Assembly: GCA_964360785.1 (NCBI GenBank)
Contig: CAYHXX010000005.1
Location: 1-54,497, forward strand
Direction: 5' to 3'
Length of the DNA stretch: 54,497 nucleotides
Origin: an uncultured Gammaproteobacteria bacterium
GTDB taxonomy: Bacteria > Patescibacteriota > Microgenomatia > Woykebacterales > RBG-16-39-9b
Shown here: positions 8,890 through 35,477 of the stretch, one piece after another
Numbering within the stretch: position 1 is the first letter of the stretch
How the letters are laid out: each line of letters begins with the position of its first letter
The notes under the pieces: generated by a model
The model's database searches: none
What the model saw: the letters and a program-made list of their open reading frames with translations, nothing else
What the model was told of the DNA's origin: nothing
Program-made: the position numbers and the translations under genes

Positions 8890-8954
8890 CACAAAATAAT
8901 AGCATAAACATTGCTTATCACAGAAAATATATCGTAATTGGCAACCCATAGGAA

Positions 8955-8983
8955 TTGACTTTTAGCTTCAAATATGTTATAGT
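8955..8983 (+). promoter_or_regulatory. Sigma70-type promoter of GC island A
   Basis: TTGACT (8955-8960), 17-nt spacer, TATAGT (8978-8983). It is preceded by ATAGGAATTGAC, the motif that also opens the cassettes at 23449 and 25334. Confidence 0.55.
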
Positions 8984-9034
8984 TGCACCCTTAGTCAGCA
9001 CTCGCTGGCTTTTTTGTTCGAAGGGAGAACAAAC

Positions 9035-9760
9035 GTGAGGTCATTGGTCAGTTCATACCTGGCCACCCCGCTAGTGATCATCACCATGATGCTCTTAGCG
9101 ACGGTGGGATCAAAGGCAGCCCCAGCTTATGGCTGGGAACTGTCAGCCGACTGTGTTGACGCCGACACGATCGTGGGAACAACCACGGTGCCGAATCCTC
9201 CCCAGACCTTCGAGGTCTTCGCCGAGGATCACGTTCCGGGTCACGGGTGGCAAGAAGTCGATGGCTCAAGGCACGAGTACACGTCCTACAAGGGACAAAT
9301 GGAATTTGTGCTCGATGTCAGCGGGACAAGGGATGGTGCCGATCTCTACATCGTCGGTCTCTCGACCGGTGAAAAGACAGACCCACCATTCCCGACCTGT
9401 CCTGAGGCGACTCCGACGGCGACATCAACGCCGACTCCAAATCCGACGGCAACGAACACGCCGGTGTCGCCAACGGCGACGAAGACTTCGGTACCCAACA
9501 AGCCGACGCGGACACCGACGCAGGTGGTTCCGACGGCAACGAGTACCAGGGTCATCGCGACCACCTCGACACAGCAGGTACCAACGTCAACGAAGACGTC
9601 GGTCATCCAGCTGCCGAGGACGGGTACTGGTGGTGACGAACCTAGTTACGGTAGGGGCAAAACGATCTTCGCGATCTCTACCTCAGGGTTTGTTGCCATG
9701 ATCGTGGTATATGTGTCTGGAGTGCTGGTCTACCTCCAGATGAAACATCCCCACGAGTAA
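9035..9760 (+). CDS. LPXTG-anchored surface protein, GC-rich (foreign composition)
   Basis: GTG 9035 lies 7 nt after AAGGGAG. Signal-like N-terminus LATPLVIITMMLLATVGSKAAPA, a ~100-aa domain and a Pro/Thr-rich linker. The C-terminus is LPRTG, then a hydrophobic segment, then a short tail, i.e. a sortase sorting signal. Long alternative-frame ORFs are typical of high-GC coding DNA. Confidence 0.7.
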   Translation: MRSLVSSYLATPLVIITMMLLATVGSKAAPAYGWELSADCVDADTIVGTTTVPNPPQTFEVFAEDHVPGHGWQEVDGSRHEYTSYKGQMEFVLDVSGTRDGADLYIVGLSTGEKTDPPFPTCPEATPTATSTPTPNPTATNTPVSPTATKTSVPNKPTRTPTQVVPTATSTRVIATTSTQQVPTSTKTSVIQLPRTGTGGDEPSYGRGKTIFAISTSGFVAMIVVYVSGVLVYLQMKHPHE

Positions 9761-9778
9761 CTTCAAGACCGCTTTTTT

Positions 9779-9830
9779 GGCCGCCAGAACTGGGTTCTAA
9801 CCCCAACTGGCGGCCACCTTCTTAATTTTT
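9779..9830 (+). terminator. Intrinsic terminator of island A
   Basis: GGCCGCCAG..GGGTTCTAACCC..CTGGCGGCC hairpin (9779-9815) followed by ACCTTCTTAATTTTT. Confidence 0.6.
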
Positions 9831-9912
9831 CCAACTATCTGTTGACAAGAATTTACAGGGGAACTATAGTTAAAAACTTTTTAGTATAATTAACTTTTGG
9901 CAAAGGAGCGCA

Positions 9913-10677
9913 ATGGATTTAGAAACAATAATTTATATTTTAGTATTTACCTTCATCGGCAGTATGCTCTCGCTTGCTGGTGGCTTCATCCTGCTTAAAC
10001 GGAATTTATGGGAAGGGGAGAATAGTGTTCACCTACTTGCGTTTTCTGCTGGTGTACTACTGGCGACAGCTTTTCTCGATCTTTTTCCCGAGGCTTTGGA
10101 AGAGTCGGCTGCAGATCCGAATATTTTTATTTTCGGTTTGCTCGGCGTCGTAACTTTCTTTTTCTTAGAGAGACTTTTTGTGAGTTTTCATCCCCATGAC
10201 GATACGGATCTTGAGGGTACGAGGAGAAAAAGTGTTGTAAGCTTAGTCCTTTTCGGTGATGGTTTTCATAACTTTATTGATGGTTTTGTTATTGCCAGTA
10301 GTTTTCTGGTTAGTATACCTTTAGGTGTAGTTACCTCCTTGGCGGTAGCAGCCCATGAGATTCCTCAGGAAATTTCTGATTTCACTATTTTGCTAAGGAG
10401 TAATCTCGGAGCAAAGAAAGCAATTGTCTTCAATATTCTGTCAGGTTTAACAGCCATGGCAGGAGCAATAATTGCAATTTTTGTCTCTTCTTTTATCGAG
10501 CCGTTTCTGGGATTGGTTCTCGCTTTTACGGGAGGAATGTTTATTTATATAGCAGCTTCAGGTATCATTCCTGAGCTACAGCATCTCTACCTCAAAGATC
10601 GGAAATGGCACCAAGCAATTTTCTTTGTTATTGGCCTTTTAACAACCTACACACTTATTCAGTTACTTCATGTCTAG
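9913..10677 (+). CDS. ZIP family divalent metal transporter (ZupT-like)
   Basis: Polytopic membrane protein with the HNFIDGF and HEIPQEISDF motifs of ZIP/ZupT. Its own TTGACA-N17-TATAGT promoter is at 9842-9870. Confidence 0.85.
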   Translation: MDLETIIYILVFTFIGSMLSLAGGFILLKRNLWEGENSVHLLAFSAGVLLATAFLDLFPEALEESAADPNIFIFGLLGVVTFFFLERLFVSFHPHDDTDLEGTRRKSVVSLVLFGDGFHNFIDGFVIASSFLVSIPLGVVTSLAVAAHEIPQEISDFTILLRSNLGAKKAIVFNILSGLTAMAGAIIAIFVSSFIEPFLGLVLAFTGGMFIYIAASGIIPELQHLYLKDRKWHQAIFFVIGLLTTYTLIQLLHV

Positions 10678-10716
10678 GTTGACACTTGGGGCATTTGACG
10701 ATACGATTATTTAGAT

Positions 10717-11103
10717 ATGACAGAAAAAGCTAAAAAAGTTTTAGTTGTTGACGACGAAGATTCTGTACGCGAGATCTATCGTCACGAGTTTCTTAACAGC
10801 GGTTATACAGTTGTTGTAGCAGCTGACGGAGAAGAAGGTTTGCTCAAAGCCGGAGAAGAGCAGCCCGATATCATGTTACTCGATATCATGCTTCCAAAAA
10901 TGAGTGGTATCGAAGTTTTGCGGGCTTTGAAAGAAAACGAGCTTACCAAAAAGATTCCTGTATTACTTCTGACCAACCTCGGTGAAGAAACAATCATTAA
11001 GGAAGGTTTTGAACTTGGAGCCGATGGTTATTTGTTGAAAGTTTCCTACACACCTTCGCAGGTTGTTGAAGAAGTTAAGAAGTTCTTTGAGGGTGGTTCC
11101 TAG
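10717..11103 (+). CDS. Stand-alone response regulator receiver domain (CheY-like)
   Basis: 128 aa with VLVVDDEDS, DIMLLDIMLPKMSG (phospho-acceptor Asp) and LLLTNLG..K. Confidence 0.85.
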   Translation: MTEKAKKVLVVDDEDSVREIYRHEFLNSGYTVVVAADGEEGLLKAGEEQPDIMLLDIMLPKMSGIEVLRALKENELTKKIPVLLLTNLGEETIIKEGFELGADGYLLKVSYTPSQVVEEVKKFFEGGS

Positions 11104-11156
11104 TTTATAAGAACTCACTTTACGTAATTCTCCCCATAAGCTAAAATTTAGCCTCA

Positions 11157-11456: not shown

Positions 11457-12439
11457 TGGGATTTAACTATGTCGATCTATTGATAATAGTTCTAGCAGTA
11501 GTATTTATTTGGCAAGGTTATCGAGTTGGTTTAGTTGGTGGTTTGCTCAATCTGCTGATAACTTTAGCTTCCTTTGTACTAGCTACTTTTTTCTATCCCT
11601 TGGCGGGTGATATTTTATCCGGGACCTTTAAAATAAATGAAAACATTGCTCGGGTTGCTGGTTTTATCGTAACTTTAACTTTCCTCGAACTGGTTCTAAA
11701 CACATCCATAACGTATCTTTACGGCAAGATTGCACCGTTGTATCGGCGTTCAAAAATAGTTGCCAAGGCGGACCACATACTTGGAGTTTTCCCATCACTT
11801 GTAGTTGGCTTATTCCTAATCTTGTTGGTATCGCTGTTGATCCTGACTTTACCCGTACAAGGTTGGTTGAGAGCCCCAATTCAGGAATCTTGGTGGGGAG
11901 AAAATATAGTTCCAAAAGGACTAAGTCTGACACCAACGATCGAGAAGACTTTAAACCGGTTGCCTTACAAAAACCTTGTTTATATTGTCACTCCAGAAAA
12001 CCCAACTTCTGAAGCAAGCCAAGATCTCAACATTCCACAGGGGGTAAGTTTGTCAACTGATCCACAAACGGAAAAAGATATGTGGGACCTTGTGAACAAA
12101 GAAAGGAAGTCGGCGGGGTTGAAAGAAGTTAAGTTTAGTAATGATTTGCGCGATGTCGGTAGAGATCATTGTAAAGACATGTTTGAACGTGGTTACTTTT
12201 CTCATTATACTCCGGAAGGTGGTTCGCCTTTTGATCGTATCGATGAAGCAGGGATCGACTACGTTTCAGCAGGGGAGAACCTCGCCTATGCTCCTAGTCT
12301 GGCGTTGGCACATCAAGGGCTGATGAATTCACCAGGACACAAGGCCAATATCCTCCGAGATAGTTTTGGTACACTCGGAGTTGGGGTCATTGACGGGGGA
12401 ATCTACGGCAAAATGTTCTGCCAGGAATTTACTAACTAA
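11456..12439 (+). CDS. CvpA-family membrane domain fused to a CAP/SCP (YkwD-like) domain
   Basis: The N-terminal 4 TM helices resemble CvpA (VDLLIIVLAVVFIWQGYRVG). The C-terminus carries the CAP motifs GYFSHYTPEG, AGENLAY and SPGHKANIL. Confidence 0.7.
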   Translation: MGFNYVDLLIIVLAVVFIWQGYRVGLVGGLLNLLITLASFVLATFFYPLAGDILSGTFKINENIARVAGFIVTLTFLELVLNTSITYLYGKIAPLYRRSKIVAKADHILGVFPSLVVGLFLILLVSLLILTLPVQGWLRAPIQESWWGENIVPKGLSLTPTIEKTLNRLPYKNLVYIVTPENPTSEASQDLNIPQGVSLSTDPQTEKDMWDLVNKERKSAGLKEVKFSNDLRDVGRDHCKDMFERGYFSHYTPEGGSPFDRIDEAGIDYVSAGENLAYAPSLALAHQGLMNSPGHKANILRDSFGTLGVGVIDGGIYGKMFCQEFTN

Positions 12440-12506
12440 TGTATAATTGTTGAACGTAATAGCTTTATCGGCAGAGAACTTTAAAATCAAGCTGACTAGG
12501 ATCTTT

Positions 12507-12582
12507 GGGTCCGTAGCTCAGCGGTTAGAGCACCACTCTTATAAAGTGGGGGTCGATGGTTCGAATCCATCTGGACCCACCA
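12507..12582 (+). tRNA. tRNA-Ile (anticodon TAT), CCA encoded
   Basis: Hand-folded cloverleaf. Acceptor GGGTCCG/TGGACCC, D arm GCTC-AGCGGTTA-GAGC, anticodon stem CCACT/AGTGG with loop CTTATAA, T arm GATGG-TTCGAAT-CCATC, discriminator A plus CCA. Confidence 0.85.
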
Positions 12583-12657
12583 TAAGCCTTAATTGGTTTG
12601 ATTATTGTGGAACTCTGCCGGTACTGCTGCCTAGTTTATTAAAATTTCCGACTGAAG

Positions 12658-13062
12658 ATGAAACTTATTTACGCCTTGGTTTGTGATCATGCATTTCTTT
12701 CGATTGACCGTAAGGTCAATATTATCGGTGTTTTTGAGACAATCAATGCCCAAGCTTTCCCAGTCAATCACCAGAAGTTTACACTGGTTGGTAGTGTCGC
12801 ACCCTCAAAAGATAAGTTCAAAATGGCTATCGATATTGTTGCGCAAGATTCAGGAAAATCAATATTGAAGGATGTACAGGAGCGAGATGTAGTTTTGCCA
12901 GCCAACAACGAAGGTAAAAACTTCAATTTTATTATTGAAATCTTAAACACTGTTTTTCCCAAGGCAGGTTACTATTTAGTAAAGATCGTGATTGATGGTG
13001 AGACCTTGTCAGATCTGAAACTTCTTTTGCTTCAGACTACTGAAAATAAAAGCCTAAACTAG
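12658..13062 (+). CDS. Hypothetical protein
   Basis: 134-aa ORF with host-like composition and no recognisable motif. Confidence 0.5.
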   Translation: MKLIYALVCDHAFLSIDRKVNIIGVFETINAQAFPVNHQKFTLVGSVAPSKDKFKMAIDIVAQDSGKSILKDVQERDVVLPANNEGKNFNFIIEILNTVFPKAGYYLVKIVIDGETLSDLKLLLLQTTENKSLN

Positions 13063-13068
13063 AACCAG

Positions 13069-13827
13069 ATGTTATTTCTGATACTACTTCTTGCCACAAT
13101 TCCCGCCATCTTTTGGTTTTTTGTTTTTCTCCGCGAAGAGAAGTTTGACGCAATACCAAAGAAATTAATCACCAAAGTGTTTGTTATTGGCGCTTTGAGT
13201 GGTTTGTTAGCAGTTGTGTTTGAGTTTGTTTTAGTTCTATTTTTCCCCGCTTCTGCTACCAGAGCAGTCTTTGAGCCAGACGAAATTCAAAAATTAGCTT
13301 TTTCTACGGCGGTGTTTGCACTTATTATCACCATTTGTGCTGCTGCTATTGAAGAGTTGGTAAAGATATACTCGGTAAAGTGGTTTGCTTACGACAATTT
13401 TCAGTTCAACCAAGTTGTCGATGGGGCAGTGCTGGGAGTCAGTGCTGGACTGGGTTTTGCTACCTTAGAGAACATTGGCTATTTTCTTGGGGTTGCAGAT
13501 AAAGATTTCGGTACTTTTCTAACTGTTTTTGTAGTTAGGTTCTTAGCTACTACTTTACTTCATGCACTTACCACCGGTATTGCCGGTTATTATCTTGGAA
13601 AGGCAAAGTTTTCAACAGACAAAGGAGTGTTTTGGGAAGGGTTGTTAGCAGCGATTCTAATTCACGCTACGTTCAATATTCTTCTGTTTAGTGGGCTAGT
13701 GCTTGGATTACTGCTAAATATAGTTCTACTTGTTGTGATGCTAGCCTTCTTGATTCGGAGAATGGATAGTACTGAGGCCCAGACTATCTGGAAATTAGTG
13801 GTTTTCCGTAGAGATGTAAAAGGATAG
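13069..13827 (+). CDS. PrsW-family intramembrane protease
   Basis: Polytopic membrane protein with AAIEELVKIY (EExxK), GLGFATLENIGY, LLHALTTG and IHATFN motifs. Confidence 0.7.
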   Translation: MLFLILLLATIPAIFWFFVFLREEKFDAIPKKLITKVFVIGALSGLLAVVFEFVLVLFFPASATRAVFEPDEIQKLAFSTAVFALIITICAAAIEELVKIYSVKWFAYDNFQFNQVVDGAVLGVSAGLGFATLENIGYFLGVADKDFGTFLTVFVVRFLATTLLHALTTGIAGYYLGKAKFSTDKGVFWEGLLAAILIHATFNILLFSGLVLGLLLNIVLLVVMLAFLIRRMDSTEAQTIWKLVVFRRDVKG

Positions 13828-13830
13828 CTT

Positions 13831-14703
13831 TTATAGTTCTTCCAACTTTACTGGTTCATCCAAACTGTTTTGAATGAGGTTTAGATATTTTTCTGTGGTA
13901 GCAAGTCGCTTGTGTCCAGCAAGTTTGCTGACCAAGACGAGAGAAGTTCCTGACATTAAGTGATGGGCAACAAAGGTGTGTCGAAGATCGTTTACCTTAG
14001 CATCCTTTATCCCAGCGAGACGGAAGTAGCGATCGATTGCAGTACGGATATTACGTACGAGTAGGGGACGCCCGGTCTTGGTGATGAATAATGTTTCTTC
14101 CTTTGCGCTTGGACGAGCCTCCAAGTAGCGCTTTAGAGCAGTCTCAGAAGCTTTGTTGAGTGGAACATTTCGATCTGGATAGCTTTCGCCAGCTGGAACA
14201 TGTAATTCTCCGCTTTTGCCGTTTTCGCCAAACTTAACATCGGAAAGCTTAAGTTTGGCCAACTCGCCAATACGAATTCCAGTTTGGAGGAGAAGTTCGA
14301 CAATTGCAGATATTCTAATGTCGTCTCTGGCTGCATCACGCAGTGCCCGATACTCCATCTTAGAAAGAATTCTTGGAGGTTTCATATCAAACTTGGGATG
14401 TTCGAGTAGGGAAGCTGGGTCGTCAGTGATAAATTCGTTTATTTTTAGAAATCTGAAGAAAGTTTTTGTAGAGTTTGTTTTTCGAGAGATGCTTTTAGGG
14501 GTGTAGCCCTCTTTAACAAGTTTGGCCATAAAAGCTTGGAGGTCGGCTGTTGCAATCTCATGGACTTGATGCTTCTTAAGGTTTTCTAGGAAAGCGGCTA
14601 GTTGTTCGATATCTTTTCCGTACGCCAAGACAGTCGCGCTACTGCGACCTTGAGACTTAAGATGATCAACAAATTTTGAGTGGGCTTCCTGTACTTTTAT
14701 CAT
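13831..14703 (-). CDS. Tyrosine site-specific recombinase (XerC/XerD-like)
   Basis: 290 aa. N-terminal SAM-like core-binding domain, then catalytic-domain motifs TGIRIGEL, DLRHTFVAHHL and LAGHKRLATTEKY (R..H-x-x-R..Y pattern). Confidence 0.85.
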   Translation of the reverse strand: MIKVQEAHSKFVDHLKSQGRSSATVLAYGKDIEQLAAFLENLKKHQVHEIATADLQAFMAKLVKEGYTPKSISRKTNSTKTFFRFLKINEFITDDPASLLEHPKFDMKPPRILSKMEYRALRDAARDDIRISAIVELLLQTGIRIGELAKLKLSDVKFGENGKSGELHVPAGESYPDRNVPLNKASETALKRYLEARPSAKEETLFITKTGRPLLVRNIRTAIDRYFRLAGIKDAKVNDLRHTFVAHHLMSGTSLVLVSKLAGHKRLATTEKYLNLIQNSLDEPVKLEEL

Positions 14704-15172: not shown

Positions 15173-15646
15173 TTACTTGATAGAGATATTTCCAGAATAT
15201 CTTAGTGCCGAAGTCGTATCAGCCTTGATCACAAATCTGTAGCGGCCGGTTGTTAGTGGTGAGTTTTTCGAAAAATCAACAAAACTTTGACCATTTGTAG
15301 GTTCAATAACTTCGATCTCACCCTCAGGGTTATAAATCCAAACAGAATCAATATTTTCTGAATTCTTCCAGGAAAAGAACGCAGAAAGTACACAAGAAGC
15401 ATTTCCTTTATAGTCAAGTTGGAAGATAGCATTGTTGGTTGAAGAAACATCTCCATTGAACTTTTTTGACTGTTTAAAGTTGCAACTGTCAGGGTTTTCT
15501 CTACTTTCCATTGTTGCCAAACCGAGGGTATATGCTACCGATAAGCCCACAATCAAAAGTATAAAAGTAGTAACAAAAAGTACAAAGAAATTGGTGTAAT
15601 AAAGCGGATGCTGTATAGCTTTTTTAGACAGTTTTAGAAGATCCAT
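15173..15646 (-). CDS. Hypothetical membrane-anchored protein
   Basis: 157-aa ORF with one TM helix (FFVLFVTTFILLIVGLSVAY). No recognisable motif. Confidence 0.5.
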   Translation of the reverse strand: MDLLKLSKKAIQHPLYYTNFFVLFVTTFILLIVGLSVAYTLGLATMESRENPDSCNFKQSKKFNGDVSSTNNAIFQLDYKGNASCVLSAFFSWKNSENIDSVWIYNPEGEIEVIEPTNGQSFVDFSKNSPLTTGRYRFVIKADTTSALRYSGNISIK

Positions 15647-15697
15647 GGCAGTCCGCCAGAATAGCGGATAAGTTAATGTTACCTACAATAGGTTCAA

Positions 15698-15884
15698 AAA
15701 GTCAAACCTTCGGTTTCTGCATTTCGTTGAAAAGTCAAACCTTCAGTTATGCATTCCTGCGGAAAGTCAATTCCTACGGAATTGGCATTGCTCGCTACTG
15801 ATAGTGTCTATTCGAACTATAGCGGCTCCGCAAAGTCAATTTAAGAAAATTCAGTCCGTTGAAATGAATGTGAGAGGTTTGACT
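15698..15884. repeat. Tandem AAAGTCAA-hairpin repeat array (4 direct units plus 1 inverted core)
   Basis: AAAGTCAA occurs at 15698, 15731, 15763 and 15832. Each is followed by a short hairpin (AAACC-TTC-GGTTT; AATTCC-TAC-GGAATT; AATTT..AAATT) and (T/G)GCATT in units 1-3. The inverted core GGTTTGACT is at 15876-15884. Confidence 0.6.
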
Positions 15885-15919
15885 GAAGCTGATTTCTGTG
15901 TTACTATCCACAAGCTCGA

Positions 15920-15994
15920 CGCGGGTGGGGGGTATAGAATCCCGAGAGGCTCATAATCTCTCTTAAGCCGGTGCGAATCCGGCACCCGCTACCA
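15920..15994 (+). tRNA. tRNA with CAT anticodon (Met; initiator versus elongator or Ile2 unresolved), CCA encoded
   Basis: Hand fold: anticodon stem AGAGG/TCTCT with loop CTCATAA, T arm GCCGG-TGCGAAT-CCGGC, 3' ACCCGCT-A-CCA. In this fold position 1 (C) is unpaired with 72 (T). The exact 5' end is uncertain by 1 nt. Confidence 0.7.
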
Positions 15995-15997
15995 ACA

Positions 15998-16031
15998 CAA
16001 GCCGTTCCGAAAGGAGCGGTTTGTGCGTTTT
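15998..16031 (+). terminator. Hairpin plus T-run after the first tRNA
   Basis: CAAGCCGTTCC-GAAA-GGAGCGGTTTG followed by TGCGTTTTC. Confidence 0.45.
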
Positions 16032-16063
16032 CAAGGCCTTTGGTATAATTTGCCCTAACTCAA

Positions 16064-16099
16064 GGCTGCTTAGCTCAGTGGCAGAGCACCGGACTTATA
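16064..16099 (+). pseudogene. tRNA 5'-half fragment (acceptor, D arm and anticodon loop only)
   Basis: GGCTGCTTAGCTCAGTGGCAGAGCACCGGACTTATA matches the 5' half of the tRNA at 16128 (GGCAGGGTAGCTCAGTGGCAGAGCAGCGGACTCATAA) at most positions. No 3' half follows; instead there is a hairpin ATGATGCTGGTGCATCAT. It is preceded by TGGTATAAT (16041-16049). Confidence 0.55.
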
Positions 16100-16127
16100 T
16101 GATGCTGGTGCATCATGCGTTTGTGAT

Positions 16128-16202
16128 GGCAGGGTAGCTCAGTGGCAGAGCAGCGGACTCATAAGCCGTTGGTCGTGGGTTCAAATCCCACCCCTGCCAC
16201 CA
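16128..16202 (+). tRNA. tRNA-Met (anticodon CAT), CCA encoded
   Basis: Acceptor GGCAGGG/CCCTGCC, D arm GCTC-AGTGGCA-GAGC, anticodon loop CTCATAA, T arm GTGGG-TTCAAAT-CCCAC, discriminator A plus CCA. Confidence 0.85.
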
Positions 16203-16293
16203 CAAACTAAAGCCGATATTTACTAACAGCTGGTTCAGTCCGCCGAAGGGCGGATTGGATGCGAAGCGTCTGCTTCCAACCGCAGCCACCAAT

Positions 16294-17611: not shown

Positions 17612-17621
17612 AAAAGCTCAA

Positions 17622-26569: not shown

Positions 26570-26572
26570 AAT

Positions 26573-28370: not shown

Positions 28371-28413
28371 CTCGCTTGAGTTACAAGCGTGATATAAATC
28401 TTAAGAAAGCTTT

Positions 28414-29139
28414 ATGAACGAATTTATCTCGGTTATCGTCCCAGCTTACAATGAAGAAAAATATATTGCCGGTTGTTTGGAGGCACTACAAAAACAAGAT
28501 TTTCCAAAAGACAAATTCGAAATATTGGTAGTTAACAATCTCTCAACAGACAAGACTCGTGAAATAGCTGAAAGTATGGGGGTTGCAGTATTCGATTTTT
28601 CCCAAAATAAGGGAGTTGGTCCGGTTCGACAAGAGGGTGTGAAAAAAGCAAGCGGTCAAATCTTGGCCTTCACCGACGCTGATACCAAGCCTGAGGCGGC
28701 TTGGTTAAAAAAAGTGAGCAAAGACTTTGAAGATCCACAGGTTATTGGTGTTGGTGGTAAAGTTCTACCAGAAGGTGCTGGGTTTTTTACAACGTTCCTA
28801 TTTGAGCTTTACGATATCTTTTTGAAAATCAACCTTTTCCTTGGCAAACCACTACCATGGGGAAATAATATGGCGATTCGTAAAGACAGTTTTGAAAAGG
28901 TTGGCGGTTTTGATCTTAATTTAGCAACGAGTGAGGATTGGGATCTTGCGTTGCGTCTCCAAAAACAATTTCCAAACTCAAAGTTTATTTATGACTCAAA
29001 TCTAAAGGTGCTGACTTCAAATAGGAAGCAAGCTAATACATTGGTTTTCTTAAATTATTTTTGGGATAGTTTTAATAATTACGTCAGTGTTGTTATTTTA
29101 GGGAGAGCAAAAAGTAAGGAAATGAAAATAGTCCGCTAA
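28414..29139 (+). CDS. Glycosyltransferase family 2
   Basis: SVIVPAYNEEKYI, a DxD-like TDADT motif and GT-A fold signatures. Confidence 0.85.
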   Translation: MNEFISVIVPAYNEEKYIAGCLEALQKQDFPKDKFEILVVNNLSTDKTREIAESMGVAVFDFSQNKGVGPVRQEGVKKASGQILAFTDADTKPEAAWLKKVSKDFEDPQVIGVGGKVLPEGAGFFTTFLFELYDIFLKINLFLGKPLPWGNNMAIRKDSFEKVGGFDLNLATSEDWDLALRLQKQFPNSKFIYDSNLKVLTSNRKQANTLVFLNYFWDSFNNYVSVVILGRAKSKEMKIVR

Positions 29140-29141
29140 TT

Positions 29142-30389
29142 ATGAAAATTGGATTTTTTACAGAAACCTATTTACCACACCTCAACGGGGTGTCAGTTAC
29201 CTTGGCCTTCGAAAAGGAAAAACTGGAAAAGCTTGGGCACAAAGTCACAGTTTTTGCTCCCAAAGTTGCAGGGGCAGAAGATAAAAGCGATATTGTCAGG
29301 CTAAGTTCAATGAAAGTCCTTAATTCAGAGCCGGAACAAAAAATGGTTTTGCCAATACCAAACGCAACACTTCGAAAAACTTTCAGGGTTGGTCTTGATG
29401 TAGTCCATGCACATGGTGGTGGTCTCTTTAGCTTCTTGGGTTACCAACTGGCCTTGGCAAAAGGCTATCCTTTTGTTTTGACATACCACACTTATTTGAC
29501 CAAGTACTTACATTATTTCTTCATAAAAAACTACTTTCTGACTTCGAGAGCGGCAATTAGCGGTAGCAAATTGTTCTGCAACCTTGCCGATATTGTCATT
29601 GTCCCAAGTGAGAAGATGAAGAAAATTCTTGAAGGTTATGGTGTAACAAAAAGGATTGAAGTTGTACCTAACCCGATTGACACCAGTAAATTTCGTAAGG
29701 TGGAAAGCAGTTTCTTGCGCGACAAGCTGAACTTAAAGCCGGATACTCTGATTTTTCTGACTGCTAGTAGGTTGGGTAAGGAAAAGAATATTGATTTTTT
29801 GCTTAAAGCCTTTGCGATTGTTGCTAAAAAGAACAAAAATTCTGTTTTTGTAATCTTGGGTGATGGTCCGGAAAAAACCGCGCTTCAAGAATTGACAAAA
29901 GAACTTTCTCTGGAGAAGAGAGTGTACTTTACTGGTTACATTTCTTCTGAGAAGATGCCAGAAGTTTATTCTGATAGTGGTATTTTCTTGTTCGCCTCCA
30001 CAAGTGAAACTCAAGGCATGGTCATACCAGAAGCAGCTGCTTGTGGTTTGCCTCTAGTAGTAGTTGAAGACCAGGCTTTTGCTGGTGCAGTCCAGGATTT
30101 TGTAAACGGTTACGAGACAAAGATGAAAGTGTCAGTTTTTGCCCGAAAGTTACTTAGCCTTGCCGAAAACAGTTCAAAGCGGGAACAGTTTGGTTTAGAA
30201 TCGCAAAGGTTAATAAAGAAAAATTTTGATCCAGATAAAATAATTATGAAGTTAGAGACTGTTTATAAGGACGCGATTGAGATTAGGAGAAACCAACCTC
30301 GAGTTAGCAACCGTGTTCAGAGTAGGTTTAAGAATTTGATTGGTATTTTTGGTTATGTAAAGGAATTGAACAAAAGATTGGGTTTTTAG
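29142..30389 (+). CDS. Glycosyltransferase family 4 (GT-B, group 1)
   Basis: KIGFFTETYLPHLNGV N-terminal domain and the C-terminal E..GMVIPEAAACGLPLVV motif. Confidence 0.85.
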   Translation: MKIGFFTETYLPHLNGVSVTLAFEKEKLEKLGHKVTVFAPKVAGAEDKSDIVRLSSMKVLNSEPEQKMVLPIPNATLRKTFRVGLDVVHAHGGGLFSFLGYQLALAKGYPFVLTYHTYLTKYLHYFFIKNYFLTSRAAISGSKLFCNLADIVIVPSEKMKKILEGYGVTKRIEVVPNPIDTSKFRKVESSFLRDKLNLKPDTLIFLTASRLGKEKNIDFLLKAFAIVAKKNKNSVFVILGDGPEKTALQELTKELSLEKRVYFTGYISSEKMPEVYSDSGIFLFASTSETQGMVIPEAAACGLPLVVVEDQAFAGAVQDFVNGYETKMKVSVFARKLLSLAENSSKREQFGLESQRLIKKNFDPDKIIMKLETVYKDAIEIRRNQPRVSNRVQSRFKNLIGIFGYVKELNKRLGF

Positions 30390-30836
30390 ATGAGGACCAT
30401 TGAGTTTGAAACGATCGTACCAGTAGCCATAGATGAGGTTTGGGCTATGTTCAAAAAGGTAGAAGAGTATCCGCAAATTATCGAGTATTGCCACAAAGCA
30501 AAACTGGTTGGCGGATTTAAAGAAGGTTCCAATTGGTACGACTGGTCAACGGTTTTGATAGTACCGTTAAAAGTAAACCATCAGATTGAGAAGATCTTAC
30601 CAAACGCAGAAATAATCTATTCAATCCCTTTGCCGTTTGGTGTTTTTTTGAAACAGGAATCTAAACTTGAAGGAAAGAGCAGTAGGGAAACTAACGTTAA
30701 AATGGTAGTAACAATAGCTTTTGAGAGCAAGCTACTGGATAGCATACTGGGTAATTTTGTGGAATATCGCAACAAACGAATGATCAGCAAAACAATAGAA
30801 AACTTTCATAATAGGTTTAAAAATGCAAATAATTGA
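30390..30836 (+). CDS. SRPBCC (START/polyketide cyclase-like) family protein
   Basis: 148 aa. The N-terminal pattern IEFETIVPVAIDEVWAMFKKVEEYPQ is typical of SRPBCC proteins. Confidence 0.55.
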   Translation: MRTIEFETIVPVAIDEVWAMFKKVEEYPQIIEYCHKAKLVGGFKEGSNWYDWSTVLIVPLKVNHQIEKILPNAEIIYSIPLPFGVFLKQESKLEGKSSRETNVKMVVTIAFESKLLDSILGNFVEYRNKRMISKTIENFHNRFKNANN

Positions 30837-31629
30837 CGGAAAAGCACTACGGGACAAACTATTAGCAAATCTGGCAGAAGAAATAAGTAGCAAGAAACTA
30901 AAGCCAAGGTTGGCTATTGTATTGATTGGTGATGATGAAGCTTCGCTTCGATATATCAAACAGAAGCAGAAAGCCGCTGAGGAGATCGGCGCTCAGGCTC
31001 AATTGTTACAACTTCCTGTAGGTACTGCTGAAGAAAATCTAATTACCAAAATAGAAGAGTTGAACGCAAATGAAGAAGTAACCGGAATAATTGTTCAACT
31101 ACCGCTTCCTGGAAATCTAGATAAGGAGAAAATTCTTGAAACTATTGCAAAGGCTAAGGATGTAGATGGGTTGCGAAAAGATTCAGCTTTCGAACCAGCT
31201 ACGCCACTCGGGATTTTGGAAATACTACACGAGTACAAAGTTCCACTCAAGGATAAAGTTGCAGTTGTTATTGGACAAAGTCATTTGGTCGGGGCACCGC
31301 TAAGCGAAATGCTCGAAAATGAAGGAGCTAAAGTTACTCGGATTGATATTAATACTCCGTTACCAATAGATTCCTTAGTTCAACAAGGGGATATTGTAAT
31401 TGCTGCAGTGGGGAAAGTTAATCTAGTTACCGCTAGCATGGTTAAAGAGGGTGTAGTCGTTATTGACGTCGGAACAAATCTTGATCCAGAAACAGGAAAG
31501 TTGGTTGGTGATGTTGCTTTCGATGGTGTTAAAGACAAAGTTTCACTCATCACCCCGGTTCCTGGTGGCGTCGGGCCAATGACGGTGGCGATGCTGATGA
31601 AAAACCTTGTTCTAGCAGCGACTAATTGA
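30823..31629 (+). CDS. folD: Bifunctional methylenetetrahydrofolate dehydrogenase/cyclohydrolase FolD
   Basis: MQIIDGKAL, SLRYIKQK, GIIVQLPLP, VVIGQSHLVGAPL and PVPGGVGPMT motifs. Confidence 0.92.
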   Translation: MQIIDGKALRDKLLANLAEEISSKKLKPRLAIVLIGDDEASLRYIKQKQKAAEEIGAQAQLLQLPVGTAEENLITKIEELNANEEVTGIIVQLPLPGNLDKEKILETIAKAKDVDGLRKDSAFEPATPLGILEILHEYKVPLKDKVAVVIGQSHLVGAPLSEMLENEGAKVTRIDINTPLPIDSLVQQGDIVIAAVGKVNLVTASMVKEGVVVIDVGTNLDPETGKLVGDVAFDGVKDKVSLITPVPGGVGPMTVAMLMKNLVLAATN

Positions 31630-31821
31630 CAAATAATTTCCAGAAGACTACAACTAAATTGCAGCCGCCGTCCGTCCTACATTCTGCTTCCCCGCGCGAT
31701 CGGTCTGTAGGCAGTCAGCACCACGACCACGGTTAGTTGGGGCTTCTTGGGTTTGTGGTGCAACTGAGCTTTCCACAGCATGAAGCTGTGTGTATCTGAG
31801 GAGGAAATCAAGGGAGGAATT

Positions 31822-32016
31822 ATGCCACTGATCGGTCGTACTTCGCGGTCAGGTGAACAAGAAAGTACGAGACCAAGACGGGAATTGAGGTTGAGTCACA
31901 CTGAGATCCTGGCTACTAACCTTGGACGAAACAGGACATTTGGTCCCCGAAGAACTTGTGCAGATGTCAGATTTGAAGATACAGAGACGATCAAACAACG
32001 AGCCGCGTACAGATAA
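31822..32016 (+). CDS. Candidate 64-aa Arg-rich small protein (island E)
   Basis: ATG 31822 lies 4 nt after AAGGGAGG. Unlike the other island ORFs it shows no G/C third-position bias, so coding status is doubtful. It is preceded by a ~165-nt GC-rich leader (31655-31820). Confidence 0.35.
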   Translation: MPLIGRTSRSGEQESTRPRRELRLSHTEILATNLGRNRTFGPRRTCADVRFEDTETIKQRAAYR

Positions 32017-32036
32017 ACTGAGCGGCTTTCCTTTTT
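32001..32036. terminator. Bidirectional terminator between island E and clpB
   Basis: AGCCGC..GCGGCT hairpin (32001-32027) followed by TTCCTTTTT on the + strand. The clpB stop is at 32038-32040 on the - strand. Confidence 0.5.
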
Positions 32037-32037
32037 A

Positions 32038-34170
32038 CTACTTGAAAACCACTTTTCCTGATTCAATAACAGCCTTAACTTTGTCGCCCTTTTTAACTTT
32101 ACCTTCGACAATTTGCAGTGACAGCTCGTCGAGAATCAGATCTTGGATGCTGCGTTTTATTGGCCGTGCTCCATAAATAGGGTCGAAACCTTCCTTGGCT
32201 ATCTTTTGTTCGACCTCTTTACTTACATCAAGTTCAATTCCGCGCTCACTTAATCTATTAACCACCCGTTTAATTTGCAGAGTTGTAATTTGTTCAATTT
32301 CTGTCTTACCGAGAGACTCAAAAAAGACAATTTCGTCCAGTCGGTTGAGAAATTCTGGCCGGAAACTCTTGCGGACCAAGCTCATGAGCTCTTCTTGCAT
32401 GATATTTGGAGTTTTTCCTGCGTACTTTTGGATGATATCTGAACCAAGGTTGCTGGTCATAATGATTATGCTATTGCGAAAATCCACAGTACGACCCCGG
32501 CCATCAGTTAGCCTGCCATCATCGAGAACTTGGAGCAGAGTATTGAAGACATCGCTGTGGGCTTTTTCAATTTCGTCAAAAAGGATTACCGAATAAGGTT
32601 TACGTCTGATCGCTTCAGTTAACTGGCCGCCTTCTTCGTAACCAACATAGCCTGGAGGAGCGCCGATCAAGCGTGCTACGGCGTGGGTTTCCATATACTC
32701 ACTCATATCGATGCGGATCATTGCTTTTTCATCATTGAACATAAATTCTGCTAGTGACCGCGCCAGTTCGGTTTTACCCACACCAGTCGGACCAAGGAAA
32801 ATAAAAGAACCAATCGGTCTTGTTTCCTCAGAAATTCCGGCCCTGTGGCGCCTTATAGCGTTCGCTACGGCCTTTATAGCTTTATCCTGGTCAATCATGC
32901 GATTGTGGATCTCGTCCTCCAAATGAGCGAGTTTAGCGGCTTCTGACTCCAAAAGTCGGTTTACTGGAATTCCGGTCCAGCGGGAAACAACACTGGCAAT
33001 ATCATCCGGAGTAACCTCTTCGCGTAAGATCTGGCCATCTTTGGAGACTTCTTTGAGTTTCCTATTGAGTTCTTGGACCTGTTTCTCGAGGGTAGGGATC
33101 TTGCCATATTTGAGCTCGGCTGCTTTATTGAGGTCAGTTTCACGTTCAGCTTGCTCAAGAGCGACCTTGGTTTTTTCCAATTCCGCTGATTTTGATCTTA
33201 GATCGGTAATAACATCCTTTTCAGCTCGCCAGTTTTTCTCAAGTACATCTGATTTAGCTTTAAGTTCTTTAATTTCGGCCTCAAGTTTAGCTAACCGTTC
33301 TTTTGAAACAGAGTCTTTTTCTTTTTTCAAAGCCTCTTTTTCAATCTCGAGCTGAATTAGGCGGCGTTTCATTTGGTCAAGCTCTGTCGGCATGCTCTCG
33401 ACTTCCATTTTCAAAGCTGCGGTAGCTTCATCAACAAGGTCAACAGCTTTATCGGGAAGGAGTCGGCCGGAGATATAGCGACTGGAAAGTTGGGCGGCAG
33501 CCACGAGTGCGCCGTCAGTGATCCTGATCCCATGATGAACCTCATATTTATCTTTAATACCCCGTAGTATGGCAATTGTAGCCTCAATCGACGGTTCTTC
33601 GACGAGGACTGGTTGAAAACGGCGTTCGAGGGCGGGATCTTTTTCAATATATTCCCGATACTCTTTGAGAGTAGTTGCTCCGACTGTGTGTAGCTCACCG
33701 CGTGCCAAGGCTGGTTTTAAAATATTAGCCGCGTCAACCGCCCCCTCAGCTTTGCCGGCACCAACAACGAGGTGAAGCTCGTCAATAAATAAAATATATT
33801 TACCTGACCCTGTTATTTCCTTGAGAACAGAATTTAATCTTTCTTCAAACTCGCCACGGAAAGCAGCACCTGCCAGAAGAGAGGAGATATCAAGCTGGAA
33901 GATCTCACGGTTTTTGAGAGTGTCAGGCACATCTCCAGAGACAATTCTTTGGGCCAAGCCTTCAACAATCGCGGTTTTGCCGACACCAGCTTCACCGATC
34001 AATACAGGATTATTTTTTGTTCGGCGGCTTAGAACCTGCATGACGCGGCGGATTTCATCATCACGTCCTATGACGGGATCGAGCTTGCCATCTTTGGCCA
34101 AAGCAGTGAGGTTGCGGCCATAGGTTTCAAGCGGTTTCTTTTCAGTTGGGGGTTCATAGCGAGCTTCCAT
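32038..34170 (-). CDS. clpB: AAA+ disaggregase ClpB lacking the N-terminal domain
   Basis: 710 aa. It starts at the equivalent of the linker before NBD1 ([15 protein letters not shown]). Two Walker A motifs ([16 protein letters not shown]), the coiled-coil M-domain and GARPIKR are present. Confidence 0.93.
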
Positions 34171-34192
34171 AGCCCGAAAATACCATAAAACC

Positions 34193-34219
34193 TTAGCACT
34201 TGCAAGAGGTGAGTGACAG
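34193..34219. promoter_or_regulatory. Degenerate CIRCE-like inverted repeat upstream of clpB
   Basis: TTAGCACTT-N9-GAGTGACAG against the consensus TTAGCACTC-N9-GAGTGCTAA (14 of 18 matches). It lies 23-49 nt upstream of the clpB start. Confidence 0.35.
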
Positions 34220-34296
34220 ATATAGGCTCAGAAAGAGGGAATGTAAATAACAAAAATGCTCTAGGATAGTTTATGTCGGAAATAAAAAGACTTGTA

Positions 34297-34339
34297 GTAA
34301 AAAAGGGGCAGGGCGGTGTGTGGTTGTCCACCGCCCTGC
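34297..34339 (-). terminator. Intrinsic terminator of island F operon
   Basis: On the - strand, GCAGGGCGGTG..CACCGCCCTGC hairpin followed by CCCTTTTTT. Confidence 0.65.
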
Positions 34340-34365
34340 GTGAAATGACTATTCCGTGCCTGGTC

Positions 34366-34554
34366 TCACTTGTCGCTTGGCACTGGGGTCGATCCGTTCT
34401 CCTGCTCGATGTAGAGCTGCGTCATGCCAGTCTCGTTACCAAACAGCTCGGCGGTTGTGACCACCACAACTGGTCGGACAACGAAGATCAGCGCGAACAA
34501 CGCGATCGAGCCGATTAGAAGTCTGCCCCAAAAGGTTGTTAGCAGTTGGCTCAC
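34366..34554 (-). CDS. Small membrane protein (62 aa), GC-rich, unknown function
   Basis: GTG start lies 5 nt after AGGAGG, and that RBS overlaps the upstream stop codon. One TM helix (LLIGSIALFALIFVV). Confidence 0.5.
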   Translation of the reverse strand: MSQLLTTFWGRLLIGSIALFALIFVVRPVVVVTTAELFGNETGMTQLYIEQENGSTPVPSDK

Positions 34555-34563
34555 CAGATCCTC

Positions 34564-35268
34564 CTAGAGCGTGTACTTCCGGCAGGAGTTGTGACCATAC
34601 ACGAGCCGGAAGGCCGGGCTGTCGGTGTCGAGCGTCGGTAACCACCCGCCGAGCTTGTACTCGAAGGTCGCCTGGAACACAGTCGTGCCTTTGTAAGGGA
34701 AACCATTGATTGTGCTCCAGATCTCGGGACCGGTGATCTTCTCGCTCTTCGTTGACCACCCGAGCCCAGCGTCGGTGTCGATGATGGGGGTGTAGGGCGG
34801 CCACAAAAGATTTCCGTAGTAGCTGTTGGTCCGGTAGGACTGCCAGCCCTTGAGCCTCCAATTGTTGCCCAGAAGCGTATTGAGCTCCTGTTTGCCGTAG
34901 CAGGTCCAACCGATCGTCGTCGATGTCGCCATCGCGCTAAGTTCAGCTGTTGCAGGAGCATTGCCGCACGCTTCGGAGATAAGGACGACCTCGTCCACCA
35001 GTTCGCCGTCTTCGACCTTCTCCTTGACCTTGCCGTCGGTGGGGTCGAGGAAGTGCCTCTTCACCTTGACGGCCTTCTTTTCTTTGTCAGCAGGGTGATC
35101 GCAGGTTGCGAGCACCTCGCCGTCGAAGTCAGCCGGCCTCACCTTTTCCTGCTTAGGCGGCTGCTTCGTGCCATCGGCCTGGGTGAACGACGTTCCTTGG
35201 ACGGTAATACCGATCGCAATGGCGAGCACTGCGAGCACGGTAGCGAAGATGATCGAGCGGAACCTCAT
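34564..35268 (-). CDS. Secreted or membrane-anchored Trp-rich protein (234 aa), GC-rich, unknown function
   Basis: ATG 35268 lies 5 nt after AAGGAGGG. Signal-like N-terminus MRFRSIIFATVLAVLAIAIGITVQG. Two long alternative-frame ORFs overlap it, as expected for high-GC coding DNA. Confidence 0.6.
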   Translation of the reverse strand: MRFRSIIFATVLAVLAIAIGITVQGTSFTQADGTKQPPKQEKVRPADFDGEVLATCDHPADKEKKAVKVKRHFLDPTDGKVKEKVEDGELVDEVVLISEACGNAPATAELSAMATSTTIGWTCYGKQELNTLLGNNWRLKGWQSYRTNSYYGNLLWPPYTPIIDTDAGLGWSTKSEKITGPEIWSTINGFPYKGTTVFQATFEYKLGGWLPTLDTDSPAFRLVYGHNSCRKYTL

Positions 35269-35449
35269 AGGTCCCTCCTTGTGTTTACACACCGTATCCT
35301 AAACGGTGGCTTCTTGCTTTGCCCTCGGTTTGCACTTGTTTTACCTTCCTTCCCGAAGCCCAAAGCAACGATCAATAGGCAAACACCTTTCTTATAGAAC
35401 TATTGCGGAGCGAAAGCCCCTAACCCTCGAGTTGGGTTTGTAGCAAAGA

Positions 35450-35477
35450 ATTATACAACTATAAGTCTAGGTGTCAA
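35450..35477 (-). promoter_or_regulatory. Promoter of island F operon
   Basis: On the - strand, TTGACA (35477-35472), 16-nt spacer, TATAAT (35455-35450). A ~175-nt partly GC-rich leader follows. Confidence 0.55.

Follow-up and report, generated by a model that had tools for sequence, protein, structure and literature searches.

The window analyzed here, the 54,497-nucleotide (nt) stretch of contig CAYHXX010000005.1 from position 1 to 54,497, carries seven short GC-rich transcription units (islands 1, 2, 3a, 3b, 4, 5, and 6) between core genes of a genome belonging to the Saccharimonadales (Patescibacteria, or candidate phyla radiation [CPR]). The feature is real and unusual, and we lean towards the view that the seven units are exchangeable accessory cassettes of a flexible genome, moron-like in layout and not phage borne. 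Each unit occupies a fixed gap between core genes and consists of GC-rich cargo surrounded by reusable AT-rich control modules, namely, a strong sigma-70-type promoter, a structured leader (with an attenuator-like hairpin in islands 1 and 2), a strong Shine-Dalgarno sequence (SD), and a terminator. The cargo is fast evolving and clade restricted; it comprises a surface protein of the LPXTG type, a secreted protein and its small membrane partner, small proteins of the cytoplasm, peptides of 10 to 15 amino acids (aa), and structured RNA. Comparison of related genomes shows cargo being replaced while the control modules and flanking genes stay. We hypothesize that related Saccharimonadales exchange cargo through homologous recombination in the conserved modules and in the core genes on either side, and that the leaders, some of which have terminator-like hairpins, provide conditional control. 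The recombination route is plausible, given that natural competence and the integration of homology-flanked cassettes into intergenic sites are documented for Saccharibacteria (PMC10633639).

The placement in Saccharimonadales comes from a polA-based scan of species-representative genomes, and exact-protein look-ups located proteins identical to those of the window in 0.1-µm-filtered groundwater samples from Hainich. The window has a GC content of 43% and otherwise contains ordinary core genes, three tRNA genes, and the start of a 16S gene. We compared it with eight syntenic loci (L001 to L005 and L027 to L029) with polA identities of 62 to 88% (80 to 86% for L001 to L004) and with further short contigs.

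A sequence-only reading of the window had described six GC-rich stretches, each a small self-contained unit. The stretches are present about where it had placed them, and the units number seven, since island 3 consists of two (3a and 3b). Whole-transcript GC was evaluated against a background of same-length windows (mean 0.421, standard deviation 0.025 to 0.037), as follows.

Island 1: GC 0.567, z 5.2
Island 2: GC 0.503, z 2.5
Island 3a: GC 0.543, z 3.3
Island 3b: GC 0.492, z 2.1
Island 4: GC 0.556, z 4.4
Island 5: GC 0.505, z 2.4
Island 6: GC 0.565, z 5.6

Measured in this way against background variance, a comparison that the earlier reading had itself proposed, islands 1, 3a, 4, and 6 lie above every background window, whereas islands 2, 3b, and 5 are only moderately raised (z 2.1 to 2.5). 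The difference is larger at the codon level: the G+C content at third codon positions (GC3) is 0.67 to 0.79 in five island open reading frames (ORFs) versus 0.372±0.045 in 49 other genes (z 6.6 to 9.3). The bias at third positions described earlier is borne out for these five but not for the island 5 ORF, which has an ordinary GC3 of 0.38 behind a GC-rich leader. Codon preferences are inverted in island ORFs relative to core genes (ATC, 0.85 versus 0.30; AAG, 0.82 versus 0.34; TTC, 0.83 versus 0.26). The dinucleotide distance (delta*) of the island cargo is 0.154, compared with 0.052±0.019 in equal-sized core samples (maximum of 0.131 in 200 samples); between cargo sets of different genomes it is 0.083, and from cargo to core it is 0.11 to 0.15. 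The share of AGR among Arg codons is 0.34 in 22 cargo ORFs (216 Arg codons) versus 0.33 in core genes, and the share of AGY among Ser codons is 0.38 in both. A typical bacterium of about 60% GC has far fewer AGR codons. That the cargo uses AGR and AGY as the resident genome does is evidence against a straightforward recent acquisition from an ordinary bacterium of high GC content. The GC-rich zones begin and end exactly at predicted transcript ends. As a separate observation on codon usage, ATA codons are absent from the island ORFs and make up 21% of Ile codons in core genes; the window carries a tRNA-Ile gene (12507 to 12582) with anticodon UAU, a rare bacterial means of reading AUA.

Islands 2 to 6 are not products of assembly. 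Contigs from other assemblies and sequencing runs (ENA ERZ1292618 and ERZ1292617; Logan ERR3858111 and ERR3654040) cover window positions 15585 to 31531, 22597 to 26983, 22660 to 26030, 31413 to 45268, 34411 to 36771, and 34183 to 35589; because they are 99.98 to 100% identical to the window across the junctions of islands 2 to 6, these islands are not chimeric. Orthologs of island 1 stand at the corresponding site in three other metagenomes.

The gaps in which the units lie, referred to here as slots, are upstream of the ZIP transporter gene (island 1), between a tRNA-binding gene and trpS (island 2), between polA and a CAP/SCP-domain gene (islands 3a and 3b), between that gene and fpg (island 4), between folD and clpB (island 5), and between clpB and Fic (island 6). 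The sequence-only reading was right that the neighbors are core genes; the gene at 24466 to 25347, which it took for fpg, encodes the CAP/SCP-domain protein. It had pictured the units as scattered through the chromosome. Instead of random inserts, we find units in conserved slots carrying conserved promoter, leader, and terminator modules. The relatives share a common order of core genes, and the variable places are the same intergenic gaps, where, as that reading had suggested might be seen in syntenic loci, islands are present, absent, or replaced.

Promoters at 8955, 17622, 23567, 23999, and 35477 (minus strand) score 10 to 12 of 12, are the best matches in the region, and stand at the island starts; strong SDs and terminal hairpins are evident from inspection of the sequence itself. 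The promoter-SD-hairpin layout proposed earlier holds overall, with the exceptions that the island 5 promoter is weak and the terminal hairpin of island 2 has no T-run. The motif ATAG-N3-TTGAC occurs five times in the window versus 0.31 expected, only at islands 1, 3, and 4, usually in the form (A)ACCYATAG-N3-TTGACTTT followed by an extended −10 box, TATGnTAnAnT. This special form belongs to the protein-coding units 1, 3a, and 4, while islands 2, 3b, 5, and 6 have plain TTGACA promoters. In the relatives, eight of nine occurrences of ATAG-N3-TTGAC are upstream of GC-rich units (one duplicate copy, in L001 and L023, is counted twice). We rejected ATAGGAATTGAC as a general promoter feature, as none of the tRNA, rRNA, or core-gene promoters of the window has it.

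Across the relatives, the control modules are conserved (79 to 90% identity in aligned pieces) and the cargo is replaced by unrelated GC-rich ORFans or absent. Slots with other cargo were found in L001, L004, L005, L027 to L029, and L052, and nonhomologous cargo in an equivalent slot was seen for polA-CAP, CAP-fpg, folD-clpB, and the slot between the tRNA-binding gene and trpS. The polA gap illustrates the range: it holds 3a and 3b in the window; it is empty (2 bp) in L002, which lacks island 3; in L001 it holds an insertion sequence (IS) and an island-4-type cassette, and an ORF3a-like gene is then found in the other gap; and in L027, behind an ATAG-N3-TTGAC promoter at an equal distance from the polA stop, it holds a gene (12315 to 13337; 340 aa; GC3 0.51) encoding an XRE-type helix-turn-helix (HTH) and a segment resembling sigma-70 regions 3/4. 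In L001 (13770 to 14651) and L022 (153 to 977), a transposase- or integrase-type gene immediately adjoins an island-4-type cassette; the window has no such gene.

Islands 3 and 4 have in common an upstream module of about 110 nt and a terminator module of about 55 nt. Their features, apart from those of unit 3b, are the following.

23449 to 23566, plus strand: upstream module common to islands 3 and 4 (ATAGGAATTGACAAT...AATTGCGAA.GCGT...)
23567 to 23594, plus strand: island 3a promoter (ATAGCGCTTGACTTTC...TATAGT)
23656 to 23856, plus strand: ORF3a, 66 aa, Cys-rich, zinc-ribbon-like (CxCC...CxxC), GC3 0.72, SD AGGGAGG
23880 to 23945, plus strand: terminator of island 3a, a hairpin (GGGACAGGTC...GATCTGTCCC) with a T-run behind it, read from the sequence
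25334 to 25472, plus strand: island 4 upstream module and promoter (ATAGGAATTGACAAT...; ATAGCATTTGACTTTTCAACCTAATTATGTTAATCT)
25478 to 25584, plus strand: island 4 GC-rich structured leader, ending in SD AGGAGG (fold z = −3.8)
25585 to 25923, plus strand: ORF4, 112 aa, soluble, GC3 0.72
25901 to 26040, plus strand: island 4 conserved structured 3' element, beginning 7 codons before the ORF4 stop (z = −7.9)
26041 to 26088, plus strand: island 4 terminator module

The upstream module of island 3 starts 7 nt past the polA stop, and L027 has its ATAG-N3-TTGAC at the corresponding place. An ORF3a-like ORF (CxxC...AKFRCDHC) occurs in a GC-rich unit of L001 (17334 to 17537), in the other slot. The island 4 promoter and leader (25431 to 25589) are 84% identical in L002, where they stand upstream of an unrelated ORF. 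A true homolog of ORF4 was found in L022 (65% identity), whereas the ORFs between the island 4 flanks in L002 and L001 (100 and 143 aa) are unrelated to ORF4 save for the last residues, EPIxxS, which are retained though the rest of the ORF is replaced. Frameshifts on homologous DNA were rejected as the source of these different ORFs, as the ORF bodies of the window, L002, and L001 lack DNA similarity as well. Identity of the 3' element is 85 to 88% in L001, L002, and L023, a range that also holds with the terminator included (25901 to 26087), whereas the neighboring core genes are only 72 to 75% identical; in L022, a longer segment aligns at 79%. The element shows two compensatory pair changes. 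A conserved hairpin, CATCGCTGTGTC-GTAA-GACGCAAGTGGTG (25895 to 25935), has the ORF4 stop codon in its loop, and one of its pairs shows a compensatory change in L022.

Islands 1 and 6 encode the predicted surface or exposed products. The features of island 1 are as follows.

8948 to 8983, plus strand: promoter module (ATAGGAATTGACTTTT...TATGTTATAGT) with −35 box TTGACT and an extended −10 box (promoter scan, start 8955)
8993 to 9017, plus strand: leader hairpin followed by a T-run, attenuator-like, just before SD AAGGGAG (terminator scan)
9035 to 9760, plus strand: ORF1, 241 aa, GC3 0.67
9779 to 9830, plus strand: terminator hairpin (GGCCGCCAG...CTGGCGGCC) with a T-rich tail, read from the sequence and conserved in L024 and L026

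ORF1 has a signal peptide, a variable domain, a Pro/Thr-rich linker, an LPRTG sortase motif, a transmembrane (TM) segment, and a charged tail. Only three homologs were found, all in the matching slot upstream of the ZIP gene (L024, L025, and L026); the same promoter module precedes each of them, and in the leader hairpin the stem is retained and the loop is variable. ORF1 is 45% identical to the L024 copy at the amino acid level, versus 94% for the adjoining ZIP protein, and identity at four-fold sites is 0.42 in ORF1 versus 0.75 in ZIP. The protein identity profile is mosaic, and this pattern together with the divergence fits old alleles swapped by recombination. At the edges of islands 1 and 4, CATAGGAATTGAC (8947 to 8959 and 25333 to 25345) overlaps, as CAT, the likely ATG of the divergent genes at 8356 to 8949 and 24466 to 25335; because of this overlap, the starts of these genes would coincide with the edge of the island, and no SD is seen in front of them.

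Island 6 is read from the minus strand.

35450 to 35505 (scan 35477), minus strand: promoter (TTGACA, 16 nt, TATAAT), 12/12
35269 to 35449, minus strand: GC-rich leader ending in SD AAGGAGG, longer in L052
34564 to 35268, minus strand: ORF6a, 234 aa, N-terminal signal/TM segment, GC3 0.79
34366 to 34557, minus strand: ORF6b, 63 aa, one TM helix, GC3 0.70, SD AGGAGG
34297 to 34345, minus strand: terminator (CAGGGCGGTGG...CACCGCCCTG, T-run), in a region 80% identical in L028

A 15-nt inverted repeat, AACTATAAGACTAAGG/CCTAGACTTATAGTT (35455 to 35505, minus strand), brackets the −35 box of the promoter and is partly conserved in L052 and L053; it looks like an operator for a dimeric regulator. The ORF6a family is rare, with eight representatives among 1.84 billion proteins and one homolog among 5.8 billion. 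The relatives whose contigs could be read (L052, L053, and L054) lie beside clpB and/or Fic, the slot of the window; in L054 the cassette sits in the same clpB-Fic slot in inverted orientation. In all relatives examined, the ORF6a homolog has a second, small ORF behind it. The genes beside island 6, encoding Fic (35623 to 36681, GC3 0.49) and an ATP-dependent DNA ligase (36721 to 38496, GC3 0.44), have mildly raised GC3 and are conserved at the same place in L053 and L054.

Units 2, 3b, and 5 are mainly structured RNAs or micropeptide RNAs, not protein genes. Their features are listed here.

17622 to 17650, plus strand: island 2 promoter (TTGACA, 17 nt, TATAGT), 11/12
17667 to 17800, plus strand: island 2 conserved structured leader with a long hairpin (AACTTGAACCA...TGGTTTAAGTT) and a second hairpin (AAAGCTCGC...)
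17840 to 17872, plus strand: micro-ORF MEKSWNYSHG, SD AAAGGAG
17944 to 17979, plus strand: micro-ORF MCDCIGPRFDP, SD AAAGGAGA
18035 to 18082, plus strand: micro-ORF MSHVYDARYDSYSWD, SD GGAAGGAGGGG, L027 counterpart MSHGYVSWAGHGYQSW
18098 to 18166, plus strand: long hairpin at the end of island 2 (ACGGGCGACTTGC...GCTTGTCGCCCGT), lacking a clear T-run and also present as a conserved feature in L004 and L027
23999 to 24027, plus strand: island 3b promoter (TTGACA, 17 nt, TATACT), 11/12
24030 to 24406, plus strand: island 3b GC-rich transcript with no credible ORF and an internal repeat (GAGGTTCTCAGC)
24407 to 24462, plus strand: 3b terminator module, also in island 4 (GTTAATTTA.GA.GG.AAGCGAC...GTCGTTTTTCTTTTTCT), 85% identical to L001 and L023
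31626 to 31654, plus strand: island 5 promoter-like site (TTGACAAATAA...TACAAC) with a weak −10 box, below the promoter-scan threshold
31655 to 31821, plus strand: island 5 GC-rich leader with hairpin CACAGC...GCTGTG and double SD GAGGAGG/GGGAGG
31822 to 32016, plus strand: island 5 ORF, 64 aa, GC3 0.38, of doubtful coding status
32000 to 32036, plus strand: island 5 terminator (GAGCCGC...GCGGCTTTCCTTTTT), read from the sequence

Island 2 has no long ORF, only the three SD-preceded micro-ORFs, and the whole unit folds at z = −6.0. Its leader is conserved in L004, L027, and L028, where the second hairpin has a T-run; in L028 it precedes a 421-aa GC-rich ORF in place of the micro-ORFs. Micro-ORF MEKSWNYSHG is weakly supported because it is absent from L027. 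The L027 counterpart of the second peptide, MCDCIGPRFEP, differs by three synonymous changes and one conservative change, a substitution pattern that points to purifying selection on the peptide. As several micro-ORFs have Trp codons and trpS is next, we considered a leader-peptide attenuator of trpS. This is unlikely, since other genes lie directly upstream of trpS in L028 and L029, the terminal hairpin has no T-run, and the 421-aa ORF takes the place of the micro-ORFs in L028.

Unit 3b is predicted to be highly structured (z = −5.1; none of 100 shuffles folds as well), and it has no homolog in the fetched relative loci. The promoter-like site of island 5 is conserved in L027 and L028 as TTGACAAAT...TACAAAT, and the leader (31703 to 31813), with an identity of 79% to L028 and of 90% to L027 (the latter across 60 nt), lies upstream of three mutually unrelated ORFs (64, 107, and 102 aa). 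This leader shows no excess folding (z +1.1, not significant). For that reason, and because an Rfam search including 6S returned no match, we rejected 6S RNA as an identity for island 5, which lies beside folD. No island matched any of the 4,227 families of Rfam 15 in covariance-model searches at gathering score or E ≤ 1.

Every cargo copy with a readable contig resides in an AT-rich Saccharimonadales contig, in the same slot. GC3 is 0.65 to 0.85 across the ORF6a family (window, L052 [polA 77% identical], and L054) and 0.61 to 0.68 across the ORF1 family in four genomes, and core synonymous sites are saturated between carriers whose cargo families stay GC-rich. At equal nucleotide divergence, amino acid identity is 0.75 in cargo versus 0.88 in polA. 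Transition/transversion ratios are 0.6 to 0.9 in cargo versus 1.3 to 2.3 in core genes; because the ratio is lower in cargo, we rejected deaminase-like targeted transition hypermutation as the cause of GC-richness and fast evolution. Polarized synonymous changes in ORF1 number 18 from GC to AT versus 7 from AT to GC, a count biased by the GC-rich outgroup. Compared with synonymous-codon shuffles that keep protein and codon usage, ORF1 (z −5.5), ORF4 (−4.4), and ORF6a (−2.4) fold significantly better, and 12 core genes in the same test gave z −0.33±0.60; ORF3a and ORF6b show no excess folding. Exposed or secreted products, mosaic alleles, and excess amino acid change together suggest that diversifying selection may act at the cell surface or host interface. 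ORF1 (LPRTG), ORF6a (signal/TM segment), and ORF6b (TM helix) fit an exposed or cell-surface location; ORF3a, ORF4, and the RNA units do not.

Searches for a phage, mobile, or donor origin were negative. As the sequence-only reading had found their products unrecognizable, so did Pfam, PADLOC, and NCBIfam give no match for any window island protein, and PHROGs gave none that was significant, the sole marginal one being ORF1 to phrog_15511 (E 0.004). tblastn of ORF1, ORF4, and ORF6a against 50,697 phage records returned nothing, and the island 4 3' element is absent from IMG/VR. The promoter motif has 22 matches in IMG/VR, close to a rough chance estimate, and none has a −10 box or GC-rich sequence downstream. 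No homolog from a donor lineage outside the Saccharimonadales clade was found among the 5.8 billion and 1.84 billion proteins searched. The islands of the window carry no mobility signatures (integrase or transposase, tRNA target, or flanking direct repeats), and neither the window nor the syntenic loci contain an integrase, att repeats, or structural genes; the sole tyrosine recombinase in the window (13831 to 14703) is XerC/D-like and conserved in all relatives. Integron cassettes were rejected as well, as there is no integron integrase, attI, or attC array and the units are single and dispersed, with their own promoters. So was a diversity-generating retroelement: no pair resembling template and variable repeats was found at the islands, and allele differences are neither transition biased nor A biased; no reverse transcriptase was found among the identified genes of the window, where not every ORF was scanned against Pfam.

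GC-richness is a long-standing property of the cargo pool, not the mark of a recent one-off import, and it is partly tied to unusually strong predicted RNA folding. As candidate causes we see a GC-rich gene pool that has escaped sampling and selection in favor of transcripts that fold strongly. One alternative overlaps with the exchangeable-cassette reading and differs only on the cause of the composition: the cargo would consist of native clade-specific genes and RNAs whose silent sites are held GC-rich in place, by selection for very stable, folded transcripts or by GC-biased gene conversion at recombination hot spots, with no donor. We regard this as possible, if on the doubtful side. It would account for families that stay GC-rich in every carrier despite saturated core synonymous sites, for AGR and AGY shares equal to those of the core, for the excess folding of ORF1, ORF4, and ORF6a and of the noncoding units (z = −5.1 and −6.0), for conserved leaders and 3' elements that are themselves GC-rich and structured, and for the absence of a donor anywhere searched. 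It fits less well with the GC-to-AT excess in ORF1, which looks like decay and not equilibrium (subject to the outgroup bias), with GC3 values that differ among copies (0.49 to 0.85), with the lack of excess folding in ORF3a, ORF6b, and island 5, and with a dinucleotide signature that is unlike that of the core and common to cargo of different genomes. To our knowledge, GC-biased conversion of such size with such sharp edges has no precedent. Simple recent transfer from a high-GC bacterium, for example, an actinobacterial host whose DNA is acquired by a competent epibiont, with fragments landing by chance behind resident promoters, would explain the high GC3 (0.67 to 0.79), the inverted codon preferences, and the deviant dinucleotides, as well as presence and absence among relatives and the transposases beside units in L001 and L022. 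The GC-to-AT excess in ORF1 is consistent with amelioration, an LPXTG motif with a Pro/Thr linker is a Gram-positive feature, and competence is documented in Saccharibacteria (PMC10633639). We nevertheless consider such transfer very improbable: no homolog was found outside the clade in the proteins searched, the same slot of an AT-rich contig houses each relative that could be located, the cargo resembles the resident genome in its use of AGR and AGY, conservation across genomes extends to the GC-rich leaders and 3' elements, the GC-rich zones are bounded exactly by transcript ends, and the same promoter module occurs with unrelated cargo in several genomes.

True morons are a further alternative, in which the units would be cargo or remnants of an unsampled GC-rich Saccharimonadales mobile element (phage, plasmid, or integrative) that repeatedly seeded the slots and uses host-type promoters and host-like codon families. 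The moron-like layout with shared promoter and terminator modules, the likeness in dinucleotides between cargo of different genomes (delta* 0.083 versus 0.11 to 0.15 to core), the inverted island 6 cassette in L054, the HTH/sigma-like cargo in L027, and the IS beside units in L001 and L022 speak for it. Against this stand the lack of any PHROG, phage, or IMG/VR match, the lack of integrase, att repeats, and structural genes in the window and syntenic loci, and the chromosomal location of every copy found, and we judge it rather unlikely. The chance that GC-rich foreign reads were joined into an AT-rich contig by misassembly or contamination, as sharp composition breaks in a metagenome might suggest, is practically nil, given the near-identical separate assemblies across islands 2 to 6, the orthologous GC-rich units at the same sites in other genomes, and the coincidence of the breaks with promoters and terminators. 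Several points also weigh against the cassette reading that we prefer. A shared promoter could mean a common regulator and not a common origin; the promoters, attenuators, and terminators are consensus matches and predicted folds; and covariation support for the RNA elements is thin (three or four sequences, with one to four compensatory pairs each). The window yielded neither a recombination event nor an enzyme of mobility, and the comparison base is only about a dozen related contigs, in which rapid divergence in place, instead of replacement, is not strictly excluded for every slot. The AlphaFold model of ORF6a (predicted local distance difference test [pLDDT] score of 32) was unusable for a fold search.

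In their behavior the units are closest to replacement-type flexible genomic islands, or hypervariable loci. As in the flexible or metagenomic islands of marine and freshwater bacteria, different content occupies equivalent positions between core genes, alleles are mosaic and fast evolving, and flanking homology is a likely route of exchange; here, nonhomologous content lies between the same core genes, and alleles are mosaic and more divergent than their flanks. Unlike those islands, the units are of single-gene scale (0.4 to 1.2 kb), GC-richer and not GC-poorer than the core, and equipped with a conserved promoter/leader platform and almost wholly ORFan cargo. Phage morons, to which the sequence-only reading had likened the units, share with them a promoter and terminator of their own around apparently dispensable cargo, deviant composition, ORFan products, and presence or absence between relatives. 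That part of the comparison stands, but its phage context does not: the units lie outside any phage or prophage, in conserved gaps between housekeeping genes (the neighbors are ZIP, trpS, ftsH, polA, fpg, folD, and clpB), and lack phage homologs. The control modules here also outlast the cargo, and some units are RNA or micropeptide units. Integron cassettes likewise have a variable ORF after a fixed expression region and a structured 3' element behind it, but in our case an intrinsic terminator comes after the 3' element, whose sequence is conserved, and the units are single and dispersed. Atypical GC, codon usage, and dinucleotides and a patchy distribution are also typical of classical acquired islets; however, no donor, tRNA target, integrase, or direct repeats were found here, the units are clade restricted and GC-rich in all carriers, and their AGR and AGY usage matches that of the resident genome. 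Finally, the conserved GC-rich leaders of islands 1, 2, 4, and 5, with predicted structure and terminator-like hairpins before the SD, resemble cis-regulatory leader RNAs and attenuators, and the 3' element of island 4 resembles structured RNAs derived from 3' untranslated regions; unlike known leader RNAs, they match none of the Rfam families, and the same leader serves unrelated ORFs.

Several other features of the window and the polA scan were observed. Between the two tRNA-Met genes lies a truncated copy (16064 to 16109, 80% identity) of the 5' portion of one tRNA-Met gene (16128 to 16202); it received no call from ARAGORN. An intergenic repeat of about 160 nt occurs in three copies (212 to 377, 4095 to 4254, and 40690 to 40829) that are 63 to 89% identical, with a terminator-like hairpin (CACCTTTTCAAAAAGGTG) at the start of at least the first two; the ends of the copies lie shortly upstream of genes that are unrelated (366, 4270, and 40877). 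Beyond the CPR relatives, 7 of the 11 remaining polA matches (L009 to L012, L014, L017, and L018) are from Rubrobacter-like Actinobacteria at 45 to 47% identity, and the rest are from Bacteroidota, Eisenbacteria, and Kiritimatiellia at similar identity; the excess of the former may merely reflect which genomes matched the peptide patterns of the scan.

Little is known of the genes with which CPR bacteria, whose genomes are tiny, interact with their hosts. What is described here is a compact class of strongly signaled, fast-evolving accessory units that are detectable from sequence alone, by a jump in GC3 together with an ATAG-N3-TTGAC promoter, and that turn over at fixed chromosomal sites. 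If general, they would offer a handle on candidate genes of the epibiont-host interface, several new candidate RNA elements, and a test case for GC-rich silent sites in an AT-rich genome (RNA structure, biased conversion, or a hidden pool), and the conserved slots could serve as natural insertion sites for genetics in competent Saccharibacteria. We tentatively speculate, as one possibility of limited likelihood, that dedicated expression slots marked by ATAG-N3-TTGAC, each a fixed platform of promoter, leader, and terminator in a particular gap between core genes, exchange ORFan cargo that is kept GC-rich for long evolutionary periods within a reduced, AT-rich genome, either by folding selection or by a GC-rich episome, as yet unseen, that acts as a reservoir. 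If true, such an expression-slot system would add a mode not described before by which ultra-small symbionts carry and renew the genes of host interaction.

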